Shown piece by piece: positions 5,849 through 12,574 of a stretch of DNA of 64,000 nucleotides (position 1 is its first letter; every line of letters begins with the position of its first letter). Position numbers and translations under genes: made by a program. The notes under the pieces are model-generated. The model was not told the DNA's origin, made no database searches, and saw only the letters and a list, made by a program, of their open reading frames with translations. This stretch comes from Nitrospirota bacterium (lineage in GTDB: Bacteria > Nitrospirota > Thermodesulfovibrionia > Thermodesulfovibrionales > JdFR-86): the NCBI GenBank assembly GCA_963721805.1, contig CAVRJY010000001.1:544001-608000 (forward strand), read 5' to 3'.

Positions 5849-6310
5849 ATGAAAAACCATATATACCGTCCACTGTATGTCGTCGTCGCACTGATCGCCG
5901 TGATACTCATCGCAAGGGCGATTTATGTGCCGAAGGATTTCGGTATCCAGGCCAGGGGATACCGCTTCGGCTGGCACAGGCTGGGCAACGAGCAGGAATG
6001 GAAGGACTTCACTTCCAAGTATGCCCAGAAGGATTATTGCAAGGGGTGCCACTCGGACAAGGCAGATCAAATCGCTGCCTCGCCGCACGTGATCATCCCC
6101 TGCCAGGACTGCCATGGGCCCGCGTTGCAGCACCCGGATAACCCGCCGAAGCTGGCCATCGACAAGGCCCGCTCCCTGTGCCTGCGTTGCCACGCCAAGC
6201 TCGTGGACGTGGGTTCCGGAAGGGCCGGAATCCGGGGCATAGACGACTCTCAGCATAACCCGGGCGCGGAGTGTGTCAGCTGTCATAACCCGCATTCCCC
6301 CGTGATATAG
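5849..6310 (+). CDS. Membrane-anchored tetraheme cytochrome c (CbcS-like)
   Basis: N-terminal TM helix; four CxxCH (CKGCH, CQDCH, CLRCH, CVSCH). Confidence 0.9.
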   Translation: MKNHIYRPLYVVVALIAVILIARAIYVPKDFGIQARGYRFGWHRLGNEQEWKDFTSKYAQKDYCKGCHSDKADQIAASPHVIIPCQDCHGPALQHPDNPPKLAIDKARSLCLRCHAKLVDVGSGRAGIRGIDDSQHNPGAECVSCHNPHSPVI

Positions 6311-6315
6311 GTGCC

Positions 6316-7095
6316 ATGATGATAACGAGAAGAAATTTCATAAAGAATGCGTGTATCGGGGCGGCGGCGCTCGGCGCGGCCTCTCTGACAGGGATTAAAG
6401 GGGTGCATGCGTCCGAGCCCCCGAGCAAGGACTTGCGCTACGGCTTCCTCGTCGACACGTACAAGTGCGTCGGCTGCGGCATGTGCGTCAAGGCCTGCAA
6501 GCTGGAAAACGAGATACCCTGGAATATCCCGGCCTCGCGCACGTGGGTCGAGCGGTACGTCGTCAAGAAAGACGGCGAGGTGCTGGCAGACTCGCCGATG
6601 GCCGGCCGCGACGGGTTCACCGATCCAAAGATAGACCAGGGCGAGGACTTCCCCAAGGCGACCGTGGCCGAGGCCGATGTCTCCAAGACGATCTTCGTCC
6701 CCAAGCTCTGCAACCAGTGCGACAAGCCCGCCTGCGTGCAGGTCTGCCCGGTCGGCGCGACCTACCAGACCGCCGAGGGCATAGTCCTGGTCGACCGCAC
6801 CTGGTGTATCGGCTGCGGCTACTGCATCGAGGCCTGCCCCTACGGCGTGAGGTTCTTCAACCCCATCTACGGGACGGCCGAGAAGTGCACGTGGTGCTAC
6901 CATCGCATCTCCAAGGGCATGAAGCCCGCTTGCGTGGATGCCTGCCCGTTCGGTGCCAGGGACATCGGCAACTTGAAAGACCCCAACGACCCCGTGACGA
7001 AGATCATTATGGAGGAGCGCGTGCAGGTACTCAAGGAAGAGTTCGGAACTGGGCCTCAGGCCTTCTACCGCGGGCTTGATTGGAGGATCCGGTGA
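6316..7095 (+). CDS. Tat-exported 4x[4Fe-4S] protein (NrfC/DsrO/CbcT-like)
   Basis: TRRNFIK Tat motif; CVGCGMCVKAC, CNQCDKPACVQVCP, CIGCGYCIEACP, CTWC...PACVDACP. Confidence 0.93.
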   Translation: MMITRRNFIKNACIGAAALGAASLTGIKGVHASEPPSKDLRYGFLVDTYKCVGCGMCVKACKLENEIPWNIPASRTWVERYVVKKDGEVLADSPMAGRDGFTDPKIDQGEDFPKATVAEADVSKTIFVPKLCNQCDKPACVQVCPVGATYQTAEGIVLVDRTWCIGCGYCIEACPYGVRFFNPIYGTAEKCTWCYHRISKGMKPACVDACPFGARDIGNLKDPNDPVTKIIMEERVQVLKEEFGTGPQAFYRGLDWRIR

Positions 7096-8363
7096 TCGAC
7101 CCCAATACTATTACAGAAGTACACGGCTCCCTCTGGACCGTAAAAGAGCTGTTCGTATATCCCAACGAGTTCATCGTCTGGAGCATACAGATCGTCATGT
7201 ACCCTTACATGACCGGTCTCGTGGCCGGGGCGTTCGTGCTCTCGTCGCTCTACCATGTCTTCGGCCGCGAGGAGCTCAAGGGAATAGCCTCTTTCTCGCT
7301 CGCGTTCAGCTTCGCGCTCCTGCCGGTGGCCATGATGCCGCTGGAGCTGCACCTGCAACACCCCTTCCGCGGGGTCGAGGTCTTCTTCACGCCTCACTTC
7401 ACCTCGGCCATCGCTGCGTTCGGCATCGTGTTCAGCACCTATGGGGCCATAGTGGCCTCCGAGATCTGGTTCGTTTACAGGAAGTTCTTCGTCGAGGAGG
7501 CCAAGAGGCTTTCCAAGGCATCGGGCTTCGACGCGTTCAGAGGCAAGGTATACTCAATCCTGACCCTCGGCGCCTGGGACGTCTCAGAAGATGCGATACA
7601 CGCAGACCACAAGGCGGTCAGTCTGCTGGCCGCCATCGGCATCCCGGTCGCGTGCTTCCTGCACGGGTATGCCGGGTTCATCTTCGGCTCGGTCAAGGCC
7701 AACGCGCTGTGGATGACGCCGCTGATGCCGGTCATCTTCATCGTCTCCGCTATCGTCTCGGGCATCGCGCTTTGCATGTTCGTCTACACCTGCGTGCTCG
7801 AGATCGCGCGGCACCGCCACCGCAACGAGCCCAACCACAAAGAGGTCGCGCTCCAGCTGAGGGATACACAGCGCAAGACGATAGCCGATACCAGGAAATA
7901 TCTCCTCGCGTTCCTGATCGCTGCGATCACGCTTGAGCTGCTGGACCTCGTTTTCCGCGGCTATACCGCCGTCAAGAGCTGGAACATCCTCAGCACGGTC
8001 ATATTCCAGAGGGACTTCGTAAAGATCTTCATCCTGCAGTACACGGTCGGCGACCTGATACCCTTCGTCCTGCTGATCCTCCCCGGCAAGATCTCACTCA
8101 AGCGCACGATGGCCGCGCTCCTCATGATCCTGTTTGGCGTGTTCATGATGCGCTGGAACGTCGTCATCGGCGGCCAGTCGTTCTCGCTGAGCTTCGCCGG
8201 GTACATGGACTACGTCCTGCCGATCATCCCCCGCAGCTGGGAGACCCTGAAGGAGGGCGTCGTTGGGGCGCTCGCGGTCATCGCCACGCCGTTTTTGCTG
8301 CTTTACATCATCAGTTTCTTCATCCCTATCGTCCCGAAGCTCGGGAACAAGGCGGAGCACTAA
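7092..8363 (+). CDS. NrfD/PsrC-family quinol-interacting membrane subunit (CbcU-like)
   Basis: WSIQIVMYPYMTGLVAGAF, LHGYAGFIFG, RWNVVIGGQ; GTG start at 7092 overlaps the upstream TGA; GGAGG at 7082-7086. Confidence 0.92.
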   Translation: MIDPNTITEVHGSLWTVKELFVYPNEFIVWSIQIVMYPYMTGLVAGAFVLSSLYHVFGREELKGIASFSLAFSFALLPVAMMPLELHLQHPFRGVEVFFTPHFTSAIAAFGIVFSTYGAIVASEIWFVYRKFFVEEAKRLSKASGFDAFRGKVYSILTLGAWDVSEDAIHADHKAVSLLAAIGIPVACFLHGYAGFIFGSVKANALWMTPLMPVIFIVSAIVSGIALCMFVYTCVLEIARHRHRNEPNHKEVALQLRDTQRKTIADTRKYLLAFLIAAITLELLDLVFRGYTAVKSWNILSTVIFQRDFVKIFILQYTVGDLIPFVLLILPGKISLKRTMAALLMILFGVFMMRWNVVIGGQSFSLSFAGYMDYVLPIIPRSWETLKEGVVGALAVIATPFLLLYIISFFIPIVPKLGNKAEH

Positions 8364-8522: not shown

Positions 8523-9197
8523 ATGGATAAGGACGCAGCGTTAAAGCTCAAGGTCGTGGGTTTTTTCTCCGCCCTCACCGACGACGAATTCCAGCGGATC
8601 GGCCACCGCGTCAGGATCGAGAGGTTCCAGCGTGGGACCGCGATCTTAAACGAGACCGACACGAACGAGTATATGTACGCTGTAGTCGAAGGTGAGGTGA
8701 AGGCCTCACGCACCCTCGATGACGGCCGCGAGACTATCCTCGCCATACACGGCGCTGGCGAGTCCTTCGGGGAACTCGCTCTGATCGACGGCCGGACCGC
8801 CCCGGCCACGGTCACGGCCGCAAGAGACTCCATTGTTGCGCTCATAGCGAAGCGTGATTTTCACGAGATCCTTATGGCCGACCGGAAGGTGCTCTCCTAT
8901 TTTCTCCGCCTGATGTGCTCCCGCCTCCGCGAGGCCTGGCGCACGCATGAGATACTCCAGCAGCGGGACGCCTGCGAGCGGATCAGGATGATGCTCGGAA
9001 AGCTCGCCGCGGAGCGCGGCACACAGCTCCCGGAGGGAGTGCTGATCAACTCACGCCTGACCCACCAGGAGATGGCCGAGATGACCGGCCTGACGCGCGA
9101 GACCGTCACGCGCGTGATCGACCAGATGAAACTGGACGGCCATTTAAGGCTCGGCGAAGACCGCCTGTACGTACTTCTGAAAGATTTTTTTGCGTAG
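8523..9197 (+). CDS. Crp/Fnr-family transcriptional regulator
   Basis: cNMP-binding-like domain (GESFGELALID); HTH LTHQEMAEMTGLTRETVTR. Confidence 0.93.
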   Translation: MDKDAALKLKVVGFFSALTDDEFQRIGHRVRIERFQRGTAILNETDTNEYMYAVVEGEVKASRTLDDGRETILAIHGAGESFGELALIDGRTAPATVTAARDSIVALIAKRDFHEILMADRKVLSYFLRLMCSRLREAWRTHEILQQRDACERIRMMLGKLAAERGTQLPEGVLINSRLTHQEMAEMTGLTRETVTRVIDQMKLDGHLRLGEDRLYVLLKDFFA

Positions 9198-9327
9198 TCA
9201 GCTTCCGAAATAACAAAATCAATTGCCTTCCGCATCCATGCGCTGGGCCATGTTTGTGGGTGTTTCAATCAAAGGCTTAATCCACAATCCCGTTGCCTCC
9301 ATTTTTTATCCCGGAATGCCGGTCCAT

Positions 9328-9360
9328 TTCACAGGATATTCACATTGAGCATGTTACTAT
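9328..9360 (+). promoter_or_regulatory. Extended -10 promoter with 11-bp-spaced TTCACA direct repeats
   Basis: TTCACA 9328-9333 and 9339-9344; TGtTACTAT 9352-9360; same layout recurs at 11171-11202. Confidence 0.55.
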
Positions 9361-9389
9361 ACATGCGAAAAATCGAAACAGTATAAATA

Positions 9390-9489
9390 CTCTGCTCAGA
9401 GCAAACCGAGGGGAAACCCCGGGGCGCAGAGCAACGGGACTAAACAACGGGGACGCGGTTCCCGTTCCATGTCAGCCGGGCCGCCAGAG
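9390..9489 (+). ncRNA. GEMM-I (c-di-GMP-I family) riboswitch, A20 variant, predicted to sense 3',3'-cGAMP
   Basis: P1 CTCTG/CAGAG; GCAAACC...GAAA...GGGGCGCAGAGC P2; CGGGACTAAAC...GTCAGCCGG P3; aligning by eye to the Vc2 aptamer puts A (9400) at position 20. Confidence 0.88.
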
Positions 9490-9520
9490 GGAAGCGTACT
9501 CTGGCGGTTTTTCTTTTTTT
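9481..9520 (+). terminator. Riboswitch expression-platform terminator
   Basis: CCGCCAGAG (9481-9489) / CTCTGGCGG (9499-9507) followed by TTTTTCTTTTTTT; its 5' arm is the 3' strand of P1. Confidence 0.88.
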
Positions 9521-9714
9521 GGCTGCCTCTAGGGGAGGGAGCCGATCCGATGTGCGTGATGGCTGAGGTACAGTTGCGCCTTCACGAACATGGCAACGAA
9601 AACTCCGGATCGAAGGGAGGGGATAAGACGATTAGGGGCGTTTCCCAAATATGACAGTTTTTTTCTCAAGGACGTGAAACGAGTTCAACCAAATATAAAG
9701 GAGGCGTTAAGAGT

Positions 9715-11034
9715 ATGAGGAAATATTCAGCGGGCATAGCAGCGCTGGCCGTGTTATTCGCCCTGTCATTCGGCATGGGTGCGGTGGCGCATGCGGATGA
9801 CGGTGGCGACGGCGTGAGTGCAAAGACGATCGGCGCGGCATCAAGCGCATATGTCGTGTTCTCCTGGAACGACCTCGGCATGCACTGCATGAACCCCACT
9901 TACGACAAGGCGGTTATCCTGCCTCCGTATAACAACCTCTACGTACAGGTCGTGAAGCGCGGCAACCCGCCCATGATTGTCAACAGCGGGATCTCCGTCT
10001 CGTACAGCATCGCCGGCAATACGTATACCTACGGCAAGCGCAGCTACGGCCAGTTTTGGGACAATATGATGGAGCTGTTCGGCATATCGCTGCCCAAAAA
10101 CAAGGGGCTTAACCTGACGGACCCGACCGTCAATAACGGTCTTTCGGGAAAGATGCTTGCGAAGCCTGACTATTACGTCGCCAACGGCATACCCGTCTCT
10201 CCGGTCTCGGACAAGGGTGCCTGGAACCCCTACCAGGTAGCGAATATCACGGTCAAGAACAGCTCCGGTACGGTCATCGCCAGGACGCAGGCCACCATCC
10301 CGGTCTCGGACGAGATCAGCTGCTCGAAGTGCCACGGGGCCGACCCGTTCGACGATATCCTCACCAAGCATGACGCGATGCACGGCACCGACCTGATGAA
10401 CAGCAAGCCGGTCATATGCGCCGGCTGCCACGGCGATCCGATTCTCGGCCAGACCGACACGGGCGCGGCGGGCATCTACCTCTCCGCGGCGATACACAGC
10501 TCACACGCCGACAGGGGCGCAGCCTGTTATGACTGCCACCCGGGGGACAAGACGCAGTGCAGCAGGAGCCTCGCCCACACCGCACCTGACGGCAACTGCA
10601 CGACCTGCCACGGCCAGATGAGCGACGTCGGCGGCAGCATTCTAAACGGCACGCGCACCCCCTGGGCCGGCGAGCCCAAGTGCTATACCTGCCACAACGT
10701 CGCAAGCCAGGTCGACACCGGCGATGCCCTCTACCGCAACTCACGCGGCCACGGCAATATGTTCTGCTCGGCTTGCCACGGAAGCCCGCATGCCATGGTC
10801 CCCACTAGCAAGGCCTCGGATAACTATCAGGCCATACAGGACCAGAGCGCAGCCTACACGATCGGTGACTGCAGGGTCTGCCACCAGACCTCGCGCGGCG
10901 GCGGCAGCGCCTCTGAGTTCGCCGAGGAGCATGGCGGCAGCAACAAGAGCGCCTGCAACGTTTGTCACACCGGCTACAAGTCAGCGCGCGACACCACCAA
11001 GTGGCCGCATAACTTCCTCTGGAAGTCGAGATAA
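9715..11034 (+). CDS. Secreted octaheme cytochrome c, paralog 1
   Basis: Sec signal (AHA|DD); about 170-aa heme-free domain starting WNDLGMHC; 8 CxxCH; AGGAGG RBS. Confidence 0.92.
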   Translation: MRKYSAGIAALAVLFALSFGMGAVAHADDGGDGVSAKTIGAASSAYVVFSWNDLGMHCMNPTYDKAVILPPYNNLYVQVVKRGNPPMIVNSGISVSYSIAGNTYTYGKRSYGQFWDNMMELFGISLPKNKGLNLTDPTVNNGLSGKMLAKPDYYVANGIPVSPVSDKGAWNPYQVANITVKNSSGTVIARTQATIPVSDEISCSKCHGADPFDDILTKHDAMHGTDLMNSKPVICAGCHGDPILGQTDTGAAGIYLSAAIHSSHADRGAACYDCHPGDKTQCSRSLAHTAPDGNCTTCHGQMSDVGGSILNGTRTPWAGEPKCYTCHNVASQVDTGDALYRNSRGHGNMFCSACHGSPHAMVPTSKASDNYQAIQDQSAAYTIGDCRVCHQTSRGGGSASEFAEEHGGSNKSACNVCHTGYKSARDTTKWPHNFLWKSR

Positions 11035-11063
11035 GCACAAACATATAGCCACGCCGCACCGCT

Positions 11064-11101
11064 ACACGGCCCCGCATGGATGTGCGGGGCCGTGTTTTTT
11101 T
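11064..11101 (+). terminator. Rho-independent terminator
   Basis: ACACGGCCCCGCA-TGGATG-TGCGGGGCCGTGT plus a T-run. Confidence 0.88.
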
Positions 11102-11170
11102 CGCCGAAGCCCCTGTGCGGAATACGTTGCATCGCATAGGCGTGCCGGTTCCCGCGATTGCGCGGCCCGG

Positions 11171-11202
11171 TTCACAGATTATTCATATTCAGGTGTTAAA
11201 AT
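11171..11202 (+). promoter_or_regulatory. Promoter of paralog 2 with the same direct repeats
   Basis: TTCACA 11171-11176, TTCATA 11182-11187, TGtTAAAAT 11194-11202. Confidence 0.55.
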
Positions 11203-11272
11203 ATTTCGAACAATCTAAACTGAAGCGGCCCTGTTCAGGGCGAACTGTTTCACAAAACCAACAGGAGGCACA

Positions 11273-12574
11273 ATGCGGAAAGGCTTAATAGTCTCGCTCG
11301 CGGCAATCGCATTATTGTTCTGGTCATTCGGGATGGCGTTTGCGGATGACGACGTCGGGTCCAAGAAGATCGGCGCGGCCAAGAAACCATACGTTGTGTT
11401 CGCCTGGAACGACCTCGGGATGCATTGCCTGAACCCCACTTACGACACTGCCGTGATCCTGCCTCCGTATAACAGCCTTTACGTTCAGGTCGTCAAGCGC
11501 GGCAACCCCCCCACGATAGTCAACAGCGGGATCTCGGTCAGTTATAGCATCGCCGGGAATACCTATTCATACGGCAAGCGCAGCTACGGCCAGTTCTGGG
11601 ACAACATGCAGGCTCTGTTCGGGATAACGCTCCCGCATGACAAGGGCCTTAACCTCACGGACCCGACGGTCAACAACGGGCTCTCGGGCGGGATGCTAGC
11701 CAAGGGCGACTACTATGTCGCAAACGGGATACCAGTGACGCCGGTCCTCGACAAGAAGCTTAAATGGAACCCCTATCAGGTCGCCAATATAACGGTCAAG
11801 GACGCAAGCGGCAAGGTCATCGCCAAGACCAAGGCGACCATCCCGACCTCGGACGAGATCAACTGCGCCAAGTGCCACGGGGCCGACGCTTTCAACGATA
11901 TCCTCGCCAAGCATGACGCCCTGCACGGCACAGACCTGATGAACAGCAAGCCTGTAATCTGCGCCGGCTGCCATGGCGACCCCATCCTGGGCCAGACCGA
12001 CGAGGGCGCGGCGGGCATCTACCTCTCGGACGCGATCCACAGCTCTCACGCCGACAGGGGGGCGGCCTGCTATGACTGCCACCCCGGTGAGACCACGAAG
12101 TGCAGCCGCAGCCTCGCCCATACCGCCGCGGACGGCAACTGCACGACCTGCCACGGCCAGATGAGCGACGTGGCCTCGAGCATCGAGGCCGGCCGCATAC
12201 CCTGGAGCGGCGAGCCCAAATGCTATACCTGCCATAACGTCTCAAGCCAGGTCGATACCGGTGACGCCCTCTACCGCAACTCGCGCGGACACGGCAACCT
12301 GTTCTGTTCGGCCTGCCACGGGAGCCCGCACGCCATGGTCCCGTCAAGCCAGAAGTCCGACAACTACCAGGCCAAGCAGTACCAGAGTGCGGCCAGGACG
12401 ATAGGCGACTGCAAGGTCTGCCATAGGACCTCGCGCGGTGGAGGCGGCGCCTCGGAGTTCGCCCATGAGCACGGGGGCGGCAGGAAGAGCGCGTGCAGCG
12501 TCTGCCATACCGGATTTACCGCTGCCGCCGACTCCTCAAAATGGCCTCACGCCTTCCTCTGGAAGTCGAGGTAA
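11273..12574 (+). CDS. Secreted octaheme cytochrome c, paralog 2
   Basis: Signal peptide (AFA|DD); 8 CxxCH; colinear with and highly similar to 9715-11034. Confidence 0.92.
   Translation: MRKGLIVSLAAIALLFWSFGMAFADDDVGSKKIGAAKKPYVVFAWNDLGMHCLNPTYDTAVILPPYNSLYVQVVKRGNPPTIVNSGISVSYSIAGNTYSYGKRSYGQFWDNMQALFGITLPHDKGLNLTDPTVNNGLSGGMLAKGDYYVANGIPVTPVLDKKLKWNPYQVANITVKDASGKVIAKTKATIPTSDEINCAKCHGADAFNDILAKHDALHGTDLMNSKPVICAGCHGDPILGQTDEGAAGIYLSDAIHSSHADRGAACYDCHPGETTKCSRSLAHTAADGNCTTCHGQMSDVASSIEAGRIPWSGEPKCYTCHNVSSQVDTGDALYRNSRGHGNLFCSACHGSPHAMVPSSQKSDNYQAKQYQSAARTIGDCKVCHRTSRGGGGASEFAHEHGGGRKSACSVCHTGFTAAADSSKWPHAFLWKSR

Follow-up and report, generated by a model that had tools for sequence, protein, structure and literature searches.

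A GEMM-I-fold RNA element with adenine at the guanine-20 position, a predicted ON-riboswitch upstream of an octaheme cytochrome gene

We analyzed a 64-kb stretch of bacterial DNA (contig CAVRJY010000001.1, positions 544,001 to 608,000; "the window"), which contains a candidate riboswitch for cyclic dinucleotides. On the + strand, a GEMM-I-fold aptamer (9390..9489) overlaps an intrinsic terminator (9479..9520). These are followed by a leader of about 195 nucleotides (nt) from the terminator to the start codon (9521..9714), with a Shine-Dalgarno-like AAAGGAGG at 9699-9706, and by a gene for an octaheme c-type cytochrome of 439 amino acids (aa) (gene 1; 9715..11034). Gene 1 is recognized by its 8 CXXCH motifs and its Pfam domains and is most likely the controlled gene. 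An initial annotation of this locus had proposed an ON-riboswitch for cGAMP (3',3'-cyclic GMP-AMP). Judged by its sequence, the element is a true GEMM-I-fold RNA switch with A at the position of G20, and it falls into the A20 branch (GEMM-Ib type) of GEMM-I.

The whole window was scanned with cmscan against the Rfam 15 covariance models at their gathering thresholds. The sole match was RF01051 (c-di-GMP-I, or GEMM-I) at 9390-9488 on the + strand, with 45.0 bits (cut-off 35), an E value of 1.5e-05, and coverage of model positions 1-87 of 87, which bears out the complete GEMM-I aptamer of the initial annotation. A permissive scan of 9200-9760 (E <= 1) returned RF01051 again and nothing else; no second RNA element was found in the leader. 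The aptamer, whose fold was also counted on 19 family members and whose P1 covaries (see below), is made up of P1 (9390-9394, CUCUG, with 9485-9489, CAGAG), P2 (9406-9412/9417-9422) with a GAAA loop of the GNRA type (9413-9416), and P3 with its distal helix (9430-9440/9471-9482). For a 100-nt transcript, RNAfold places an aptamer-like fold at most 2.8 kcal/mol above the minimum.

In the covariance-model alignment, RF01051 model position 11 is A at 9400. In the model, this position is a G that stays unpaired and is followed on its 3' side by the two G-C pairs that form the base of P2. We equate it with G20 in Vc2, the c-di-GMP-I riboswitch of Vibrio cholerae. The structural alignment gives A and not G here, as the annotation had it, and the Vc2-like GCAAA at the base of P2 that it described is seen as well. 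Published work supports the role of G20 in ligand contact (PMC6140456, PMC6456294), but the mapping to a model column does not come from those sources. The other ligand contacts are A47, which intercalates, and C92, which forms a Watson-Crick pair (PMC5888326, PMC6140456); both are kept, as A 9428 and C 9484. The A48 position is occupied by G (9429).

The 3' strand of P1 (CAGAG) is also part of the 5' arm of a U-tailed terminator, as had been noticed: it lies at 9485-9489, within 9479-9520. The terminator hairpin (9481-9489/9499-9507) has 9 Watson-Crick pairs, plus two G-U pairs in the RNAfold structure, with a predicted energy of -20.4 kcal/mol, and U5CU7 follows directly (9508-9520). Its 5' arm includes the entire 3' strand of P1, along with the C92 equivalent and the last bases of P3. 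With its 9-nt loop, this hairpin falls outside the range of a simple terminator scanner (loops of 3-8 nt), which for that reason did not report it. Since 9485-9489 is common to P1 and the terminator, the two structures exclude each other. For a 132-nt RNA, the terminator conformer has -57.6 kcal/mol versus -40.8 kcal/mol for the P1/aptamer conformer, and the minimum-energy fold uses the terminator. As the terminator is more stable by about 17 kcal/mol, the default state should be OFF, and a ligand would therefore have to hold P1 during transcription, which makes this an ON switch under kinetic control. Thus, the shared strand, the energies, and the conservation of the helices (below) all agree with the ON-type layout and the P1/terminator competition that had been proposed. 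In Geobacter, the cGAMP ON-switch of pilM (Gmet_0970), which has been studied by experiment, shows a matching layout: its terminator sequesters the ligand-pairing C, and its aptamer and terminator folds are mutually exclusive (PMC9262584). The minimum-energy fold also pairs the 5' CUCUG with an internal CAGAG (9427-9431). We rejected this as an OFF-state pairing: it is impossible in those metagenome copies whose P1 is CGCUG/CAGCG, since the internal GCAGAG does not change with P1.

The window's element is one of a conserved subfamily. The genome it comes from (G000; 2.78 Mb in 9 contigs, 94% complete) has four RF01051 matches, versus 0 in 14 control genomes. All four copies have A at model position 11 and a common terminator design: they share the 5' sequence CUCUGCUCAGAGC(A/U)AACC and the platform GCCGCCAGAG - spacer - CUC(U/C)GGCGG - U-run. 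A search pattern for the subfamily found 21 sites in 14 of 317 genomes from the same order, and a reversed-pattern control found 0. Across an alignment of 19 members, the equivalents of A20, A47, and C92 are invariant. In these sequences, 90.3% of the cells of the aptamer structure are paired (versus 32-47% with slid partners), 8 aptamer pairs have changed on both sides, and the terminator helix is 95.3% paired. In one relative (G016), the shared strand differs at a single base (A for G), and both of its partners, in P1's 5' strand and in the terminator's 3' arm, differ to match; this is a single event only.

We also scanned metagenomes with position 20 left as N. At least 121 stretches were found, and 80 loci were fetched, with 81 matches. 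Position 20 was A in 79 of these, C in 2, and G in 0, and both of the C20 matches lacked the 3' half of the aptamer. The 3' strand of P1 was found in 69 of the 79 A20 matches, and P1 was completely paired in 63 of the 69. At least five pairs of strands occur, among them CGCUG/CAGCG (27 copies), CUCUG/CAGAG (14), UCCUG/CAGGA (5), UUCUG/CAGAA (5), and CUUUG/CAAAG (4). An arm with at least 8 of 9 positions complementary to the shared strand was present in 43 of 68 copies, with a T-rich run after 33 of the 43, and this arm tracks the shared strand (for instance, CCGCCAAAG/CUUUGGCGG). The remaining copies seem to use other platforms; in one example, CAGGAG lies beside a start codon and a GGAGG that resembles a Shine-Dalgarno sequence. 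P1 covaries, as does the terminator arm, and the element is conserved and not a chance match.

These comparisons bear on whether the window's copy might be a decayed one, that is, a plain terminator or attenuator that arose by duplication and has no ligand response. It is the lowest-scoring of the genome's four copies (45 bits), and it is followed by a long leader. However, it has lost none of the core positions or helices, which are the same as in conserved members, an aptamer-like fold lies close to the minimum energy, and the element stands in the correct orientation between a promoter-like region and a gene. We consider decay to be very improbable.

About 13 of the metagenome copies precede proteins that start with M(P/T)F(T/K)(F/H)KLS.RLA, a recurring N-terminus (at loci L247, L255, L257, L258, L266, L267, and L269, and also at L270, L300, L302, L303, L307, and L308).

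What does the A at position 20 say about the ligand? In the cGAMP riboswitches of Geobacter, G20 is replaced by A (PMC6140456), and the change A20G turns Gmet_0970 from cGAMP-selective to c-di-GMP-selective (PMC6456294). In 61 genomes, we classified 127 GEMM-I matches above the cut-off as G20 (103) or A20 (24), using a script that relies on the offset of the hit and that we checked against 14 covariance-model alignments. GEMM-I occurred in 34 genomes, and 13 of them carried A20 aptamers. One relative (G003) has 8 A20 and 9 G20 aptamers side by side, and the coexistence of the two types in single relatives argues that they are not redundant. The window's own genome has no G20 GEMM-I aptamer, and no c-di-GMP-II riboswitch was found in this 94%-complete sequence.

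Two side observations concern these relatives. First, some of the A20 and G20 aptamers of G003 (L180, L190, L196, and others) stand on near-identical scaffolds, CACCGAAAAG-A/G-GCAAA, which precede paralogous secreted beta-propeller/PKD proteins. The terminator loop of these aptamers, CUUUUCGG, is complementary to the 5' part of the aptamer, CCGAAAAG, which suggests a different platform, possibly of the OFF type. Second, the 21-46 pair is flipped (GCC...CGG) in 43 of the 127 matches (relatives such as L047, L050, and L055). These score best with Rfam's c-di-GMP-I-GGC model (65-69 bits, cut-off 59), but they keep A47 and are therefore not true variants with the GGC pocket. Three matches of the flipped type carry A20.

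The initial annotation had inferred a Hypr-GGDEF/cGAMP circuit and had suggested a search for GGDEF proteins with the Hypr substitution of Asp by Ser. The signature of Hypr cyclases is Ser348 (GacA numbering; the guanine-reading Asp344 in PleD), a GGDEF rather than a GGEEF motif, and a cross-dimer residue other than Arg (PMC6456294). In the "Goldilocks" model of the same study, Ser requires GGDEF and not GGEEF; at the cross-dimer position, cGAMP is favored by Tyr, Ser, Ala, or Gln; Thr is not among the residues tested in the part of that study cited here. The genome has 23 GGDEF matches, and of the 21 that were aligned, 18 have Asp at the guanine-reading position and 3 have Ser. Two of the three Ser-type proteins are near-duplicates, one intact (on contig C3) and one frameshifted (on contig C1). 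A second GAF-GGDE(Y) protein is likewise of the Ser type.

The intact cyclase is a GAF-GGDEF protein of 493 aa (L011:511-1989; G000 C3:994-2472). Its best relative with a solved structure is 6d9m, a T4-lysozyme fusion with a Ser-type GGDEF domain (173.5 bits, versus 119.6 bits for PleD). We infer that 6d9m is the GacA domain of Geobacter metallireducens from the description of the construct in PMC6456294, which names 5VS9. In the alignment, GHLVGS falls on GHLVGS, RYGGDEF on RYGGDEF, and LFNSRY on LFNYRY, so that all three features of the signature are present. The protein also has an RxxD I-site five residues N-terminal of GGDEF, and about 170 additional residues at its N-terminus have no Pfam match. 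Ser is present in all 30 of the orthologues examined, with the motif GGDEF in 28 and GGDEY in 2, and the cross-dimer residue in the 27 relatives that were read is Ser (8) or Thr (19). The protein-atlas clusters nearest to the GAF-GGDEF protein are from Acidobacteriota and Nitrospirota, but those nearest to GlyS are from Pseudomonadota, so that such neighbors do not place the organism.

The frameshifted GAF-GGDEF copy (C1:1345463-1346926) is 94-96% identical to the intact one and could be a pseudogene, a strain variant, or an assembly variant of it; C3 is a contig of 20 kb. About 7 kb from the cyclase gene, C3 also has open reading frames (ORFs) that encode 13 and 29 CXXCH motifs (C3:9175-12309).

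A putative cGAMP phosphodiesterase is also encoded. Among the HD-GYP proteins of the genome, 12 of 13 readable motifs are Rxx(K/R) and one is RPYQ (- strand; G000 C1:330411-331661, or L217:2112-3362). In the alignment to 4mcw/4mdz, its taRpyQ falls on sdRpyK, that is, on R314/K317 of PmGH. RxxQ is the signature that was proposed for cGAMP-specific phosphodiesterases (bioRxiv 10.1101/600031). The gene is about 2 kb from a pair of A20 riboswitches (C1:325459-328472), with a B12/radical-SAM gene between them. A query with the SMODS domain found no SMODS/CD-NTase protein in this genome. Thus, a Hypr-type writer and an eraser of cGAMP are predicted in the genome. The proposed circuit gains both of these genes, but the part of it that ties the cyclase to the riboswitch is not borne out by comparative genomics, as the cyclase and A20 do not covary (see below).

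On this evidence, we put the probability at about 60% that the element is an ON-riboswitch that has the GEMM-I fold and acts on transcription, from a subfamily in which A20 is fixed, with 3',3'-cGAMP as its most likely ligand and with c-di-GMP possibly recognized too. Without ligand, the nascent RNA would fold into the more stable terminator (9479-9520), which would take up the 3' strand of P1 and the C92 equivalent and would end transcription before the cytochrome gene. A cyclic dinucleotide that binds during transcription would hold P1 in place along with A 9400, A 9428, and C 9484 of the pocket; the terminator would not form, and the polymerase would read into gene 1. The ligand would most likely be 3',3'-cGAMP, made by the GAF-GGDEF Hypr-type cyclase and removed by the RxxQ HD-GYP protein, although the RNA may accept c-di-GMP too. 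We infer the identity of the ligand and the direction of switching in vivo from the aptamer, the shared strand, and the enzyme signatures; the products of the enzymes are likewise predictions.

Several observations weigh against this explanation. First, binding of cGAMP as well as c-di-GMP, via a protonated adenine, is on record for Vc2 G20A and for several natural A20 RNAs (PMC6140456), and the OmcST switch of Geobacter answers to both ligands (PMC6456294). As A20 RNAs can be bispecific, the sequence predicts recognition of cGAMP but not selectivity for it. Second, the base of P2 is Vc2-like (G-C/C-G), the A48 position is an invariant G in the subfamily, and the two outermost consensus pairs of P3 are mostly lost: 41-95 is noncanonical in all 19 members, and 44-92 in 17 of the 19. 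The Rfam scores of the subfamily are low (45-55 bits, versus up to 93 bits in relatives). Third, with 18 Asp-type GGDEF domains in the genome, c-di-GMP is certainly made. Fourth, an orthologue of the cyclase is present (E <= 1e-40) in 51 of 61 genomes, including many without an A20 aptamer, and a genome that does have A20 (G038) has no match to the cyclase query; because the Hypr-type cyclase occurs across the order regardless of A20, there is no signal of covariation. Finally, closely similar leaders in G003 are distinguished only by G or A at position 20, which could be either a switch of ligand or a tolerated change.

A rival explanation is that the ON mechanism is the same but the RNA is bispecific or mainly a sensor of c-di-GMP, with protonated A20 pairing with G-alpha of c-di-GMP. 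The cytochrome gene would then answer to the ordinary pool of c-di-GMP from the many Asp-type enzymes. The genome has no G20 GEMM-I aptamer and no c-di-GMP-II aptamer to read that pool, and the Vc2-like base of P2, the published behavior of A20 RNAs, and the lack of covariation between cyclase and aptamer all fit. On the other hand, all of the riboswitch-like metagenome copies (79 of 79) have A20 and none has G, which would hardly be expected if G served equally well or better; relatives keep the G20 and A20 types together; and the signatures of a cGAMP writer and eraser are present. We regard this as a possible but clearly less likely explanation than a cGAMP-responsive switch.

The altered pocket also raises the question of whether some other cyclic or linear dinucleotide is sensed, with A20 being part of a pocket that was remodeled along with the invariant G48 and the weakened base of P3. 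The invariant departures from the GEMM-I consensus and the low scores fit with this, as does Rfam's practice of keeping GEMM-I variants as separate families of the same clan (RF03167 matched aptamers of other relatives). But the A/A/C combination of contacts is that of the cGAMP class in Geobacter (the roles of A47 and C92 are from PMC5888326 and PMC6140456), and the SMODS query did not turn up a synthase for another dinucleotide. Another ligand is therefore improbable, and cGAMP remains the ligand that we favor.

The surroundings of the switch fit a role in electron transfer. Upstream of the aptamer is a promoter-like region (9328..9363, + strand), which we identified from motif recurrence: it has a repeat, TTCACAG-N4-TTCACATT, and a -10-like box, TATACA. 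A promoter scanner found no sigma-70 consensus there, and a search for sequencing runs covering 9250-10250 listed none with RNA. In alignments, the TTCACAG motif recurs upstream of gene 2 (cyt2; see below) and upstream of the two riboswitches at C1:325-328k. More broadly, a direct-repeat-like motif, TTCACAG-N4-TTCA(C/T)ATT, was upstream of 4 of the 5 promoters that we compared (window 9328-9346 and 11171-11189, and G000 C1 upstream of 325553 and of 328472). The repeat may be a shared activator site; that its spacing is of the response-regulator type is a guess. Directly upstream of this promoter-like region is a gene for a Crp/Fnr-family regulator (8523..9197, + strand; Pfam cNMP_binding at 80 bits and HTH_Crp_2). 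The regulator is 42% identical to the product of a G003 gene (L187:3024-3773) that is directly 3' of a riboswitch from the same subfamily, which hints at a module of cyclic-nucleotide regulator and riboswitch, in which the Crp-like gene would be linked to the switch. Upstream of the Crp-like gene, the window encodes a c3-type tetraheme cytochrome, a 4Fe-4S protein, and an NrfD-type membrane subunit (5849-8363), which probably form a quinone-interacting module. With these redox genes immediately upstream, the context fits an electron-transfer role.

Downstream of gene 1 is a tandem paralogue (gene 2; 11273..12574, + strand), which encodes an octaheme cytochrome of 433 aa with 8 CXXCH motifs. 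The two proteins are 80% identical, and both have a signal-peptide-like N-terminus, an N-terminal half without heme motifs, and weak Pfam matches to Cytochrome_C7, Cytochrom_c3_2, and MtrC/MtrF domain II/IV. The gene 1 cytochrome may have an extracellular role. No relative with a solved structure was found at E < 0.5. A contig search with the cytochrome returned only three distant loci and none from the host's own lineage; they are in metagenome-assembled genomes (MAGs) of Bacteroidales (57% identity), Hyphomicrobiales (43%), and Terriglobales (32%). Gene 1 is followed by an intrinsic terminator (11064..11101, + strand; a 14-pair stem with 10 G-C pairs, then T7), and a separate promoter-like region with a short leader precedes gene 2 (11171..11272, + strand), carrying TTCACAG..TTCATATT, that is, the TTCACAG..TTCAYATT of the riboswitch promoter. 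No aptamer and no Rfam match was found in 11171-11272. Because of this terminator and the separate promoter-like region, the switch most likely governs gene 1 only: control would cover 9715-11034, and gene 2 is probably outside it. The initial annotation had the switch controlling an octaheme cytochrome locus, which holds for the gene directly downstream but is too wide for the pair. A short hairpin upstream of gene 2 (CCCUGUUCAGGG) resembles the first 12 nt of the aptamer, and gene 2 resembles a duplicate copy in which the riboswitch either was lost or was never acquired.

Within this genome, three of the four riboswitches precede genes for secreted c-type cytochromes: besides the window's copy, two precede tandem genes for 700-aa secreted diheme-FN3 proteins (one of these genes is split). 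The fourth precedes a gene for a secreted protein of 227 aa. Elsewhere, the genes that follow riboswitches of the subfamily encode secreted proteins of the FN3/PKD type or unknown proteins, as well as a Crp-like regulator and a MiaB-like enzyme. We found no downstream ORF with at least two CXXCH motifs at 36 riboswitch sites in relatives, in the other genomes with the subfamily, or at the 81 metagenome matches, of which about 70 have at least 60 nt of downstream sequence. Thus, the link to cytochromes appears to be a feature of this genome and not of the riboswitch family. The genome contains dsrA (532 bits, cut-off 393) and 36 ORFs with at least three CXXCH motifs. That the organism is not a Geobacter, as the initial annotation suggested, is plausible.

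To our knowledge, experiments have so far linked cGAMP riboswitches and Hypr cyclases to metal respiration in Geobacter and to the behavior of Myxococcus and Bdellovibrio. A literature search listed no paper that joins Nitrospir* or Thermodesulfovibrio with cGAMP, Hypr, or GEMM, although the lists of A20 sequences and Hypr hosts in the primary papers of 2015 and 2016 may include this lineage or subfamily. What our analysis would add is a widespread subfamily with fixed A20 and a different pocket context, along with a complete predicted set of writer, eraser, and reader; the recruitment to cytochrome genes was apparently independent. If the RNA answers to cGAMP, then the same wiring of signal to cytochrome exists in an apparently unrelated lineage that bears sulfite reductase. 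The G48/Vc2-like-P2 subfamily would also test what, beyond A20, sets the selectivity for cGAMP over c-di-GMP, and the compact system of this 2.8-Mb genome, with its writer, its eraser, and its four readers, could be reassembled in a reporter host. If the RNA is bispecific, it is an ordinary variant of GEMM-I. G003 also offers natural G20/A20 pairs on near-identical scaffolds, which would be useful for studies of specificity.

A broader proposal, which we put forward as tentative, is that the CUCAG-A-GCAAACC/G48 aptamers are a distinct and widespread class and that, together with the cyclase and the HD-GYP protein, they make up a full cGAMP pathway in a dsr-bearing, probably Nitrospirota, lineage, and that this genome, independently of Geobacter, came to use the pathway for turning on extracellular cytochromes. 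If so, cGAMP was wired to extracellular electron transfer convergently, and the pathway might be gated by cyclic AMP (cAMP) through the GAF domain and the neighboring Crp-like regulator.

How does this system compare with those already known? The J1/2 sequence C-N-C-A-G and the P2 base GCAAACC of the element match Vc2. Vc2 has the same fold, and its G20A mutant carries the same A as the element here. Natural Vc2, however, has G20 and is selective for c-di-GMP, and its G20A mutant is bispecific (PMC6140456), whereas A is natural and fixed in this subfamily and the expression platform here is an ON terminator.

The putative eraser resembles the PmxA-type HD-GYP phosphodiesterases (RxxQ/N) in its RPYQ motif, which aligns to R314/K317 of PmGH. 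Its architecture is DUF3391-HD-GYP and not Cache-HAMP, and its activity is predicted from the signature; of five active RxxQ/N enzymes, two degraded both dinucleotides (bioRxiv 10.1101/600031). Like the Hypr cyclases GacA, GacB, and Bdellovibrio Bd0367, the predicted writer has the Ser, the GGDEF motif, a non-Arg cross-dimer residue, and an RxxD I-site. Its GAF-GGDEF layout is that of the cAMP-activated GacB of Myxococcus, while GacA of Geobacter is a Rec-GGDEF protein. Unlike the known Hypr cyclases, it is conserved across a whole order (Ser in 30 of 30 orthologues examined), and it has the N-terminal region without a Pfam match.

The closest comparison is with the GEMM-Ib riboswitches of Geobacter for 3',3'-cGAMP (c-AMP-GMP), such as those of Gmet_0970 (pilM) and GSU1761 (pgcA) (PMC6456294, PMC9262584, PMC6140456, PMC8835794). 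The subfamily here differs from these in its CUCAG-A-GCAAACC sequence, the Vc2-like base of P2, the invariant G48, and the mismatches at the base of P3; in other genomes, it mostly precedes genes for secreted FN3/PKD-type or unknown proteins and not cytochromes, and the host carries dsrA. As in Geobacter, the element has the GEMM-I fold with A20 and with A47 and C92 kept, and it precedes a gene for an extracellular-type multiheme cytochrome in a genome with a Ser-type (Hypr) GGDEF protein. The two systems also share, at the sequence level here, the ON logic in which the ligand-pairing C, like the 3' strand of P1, is taken up by the terminator.

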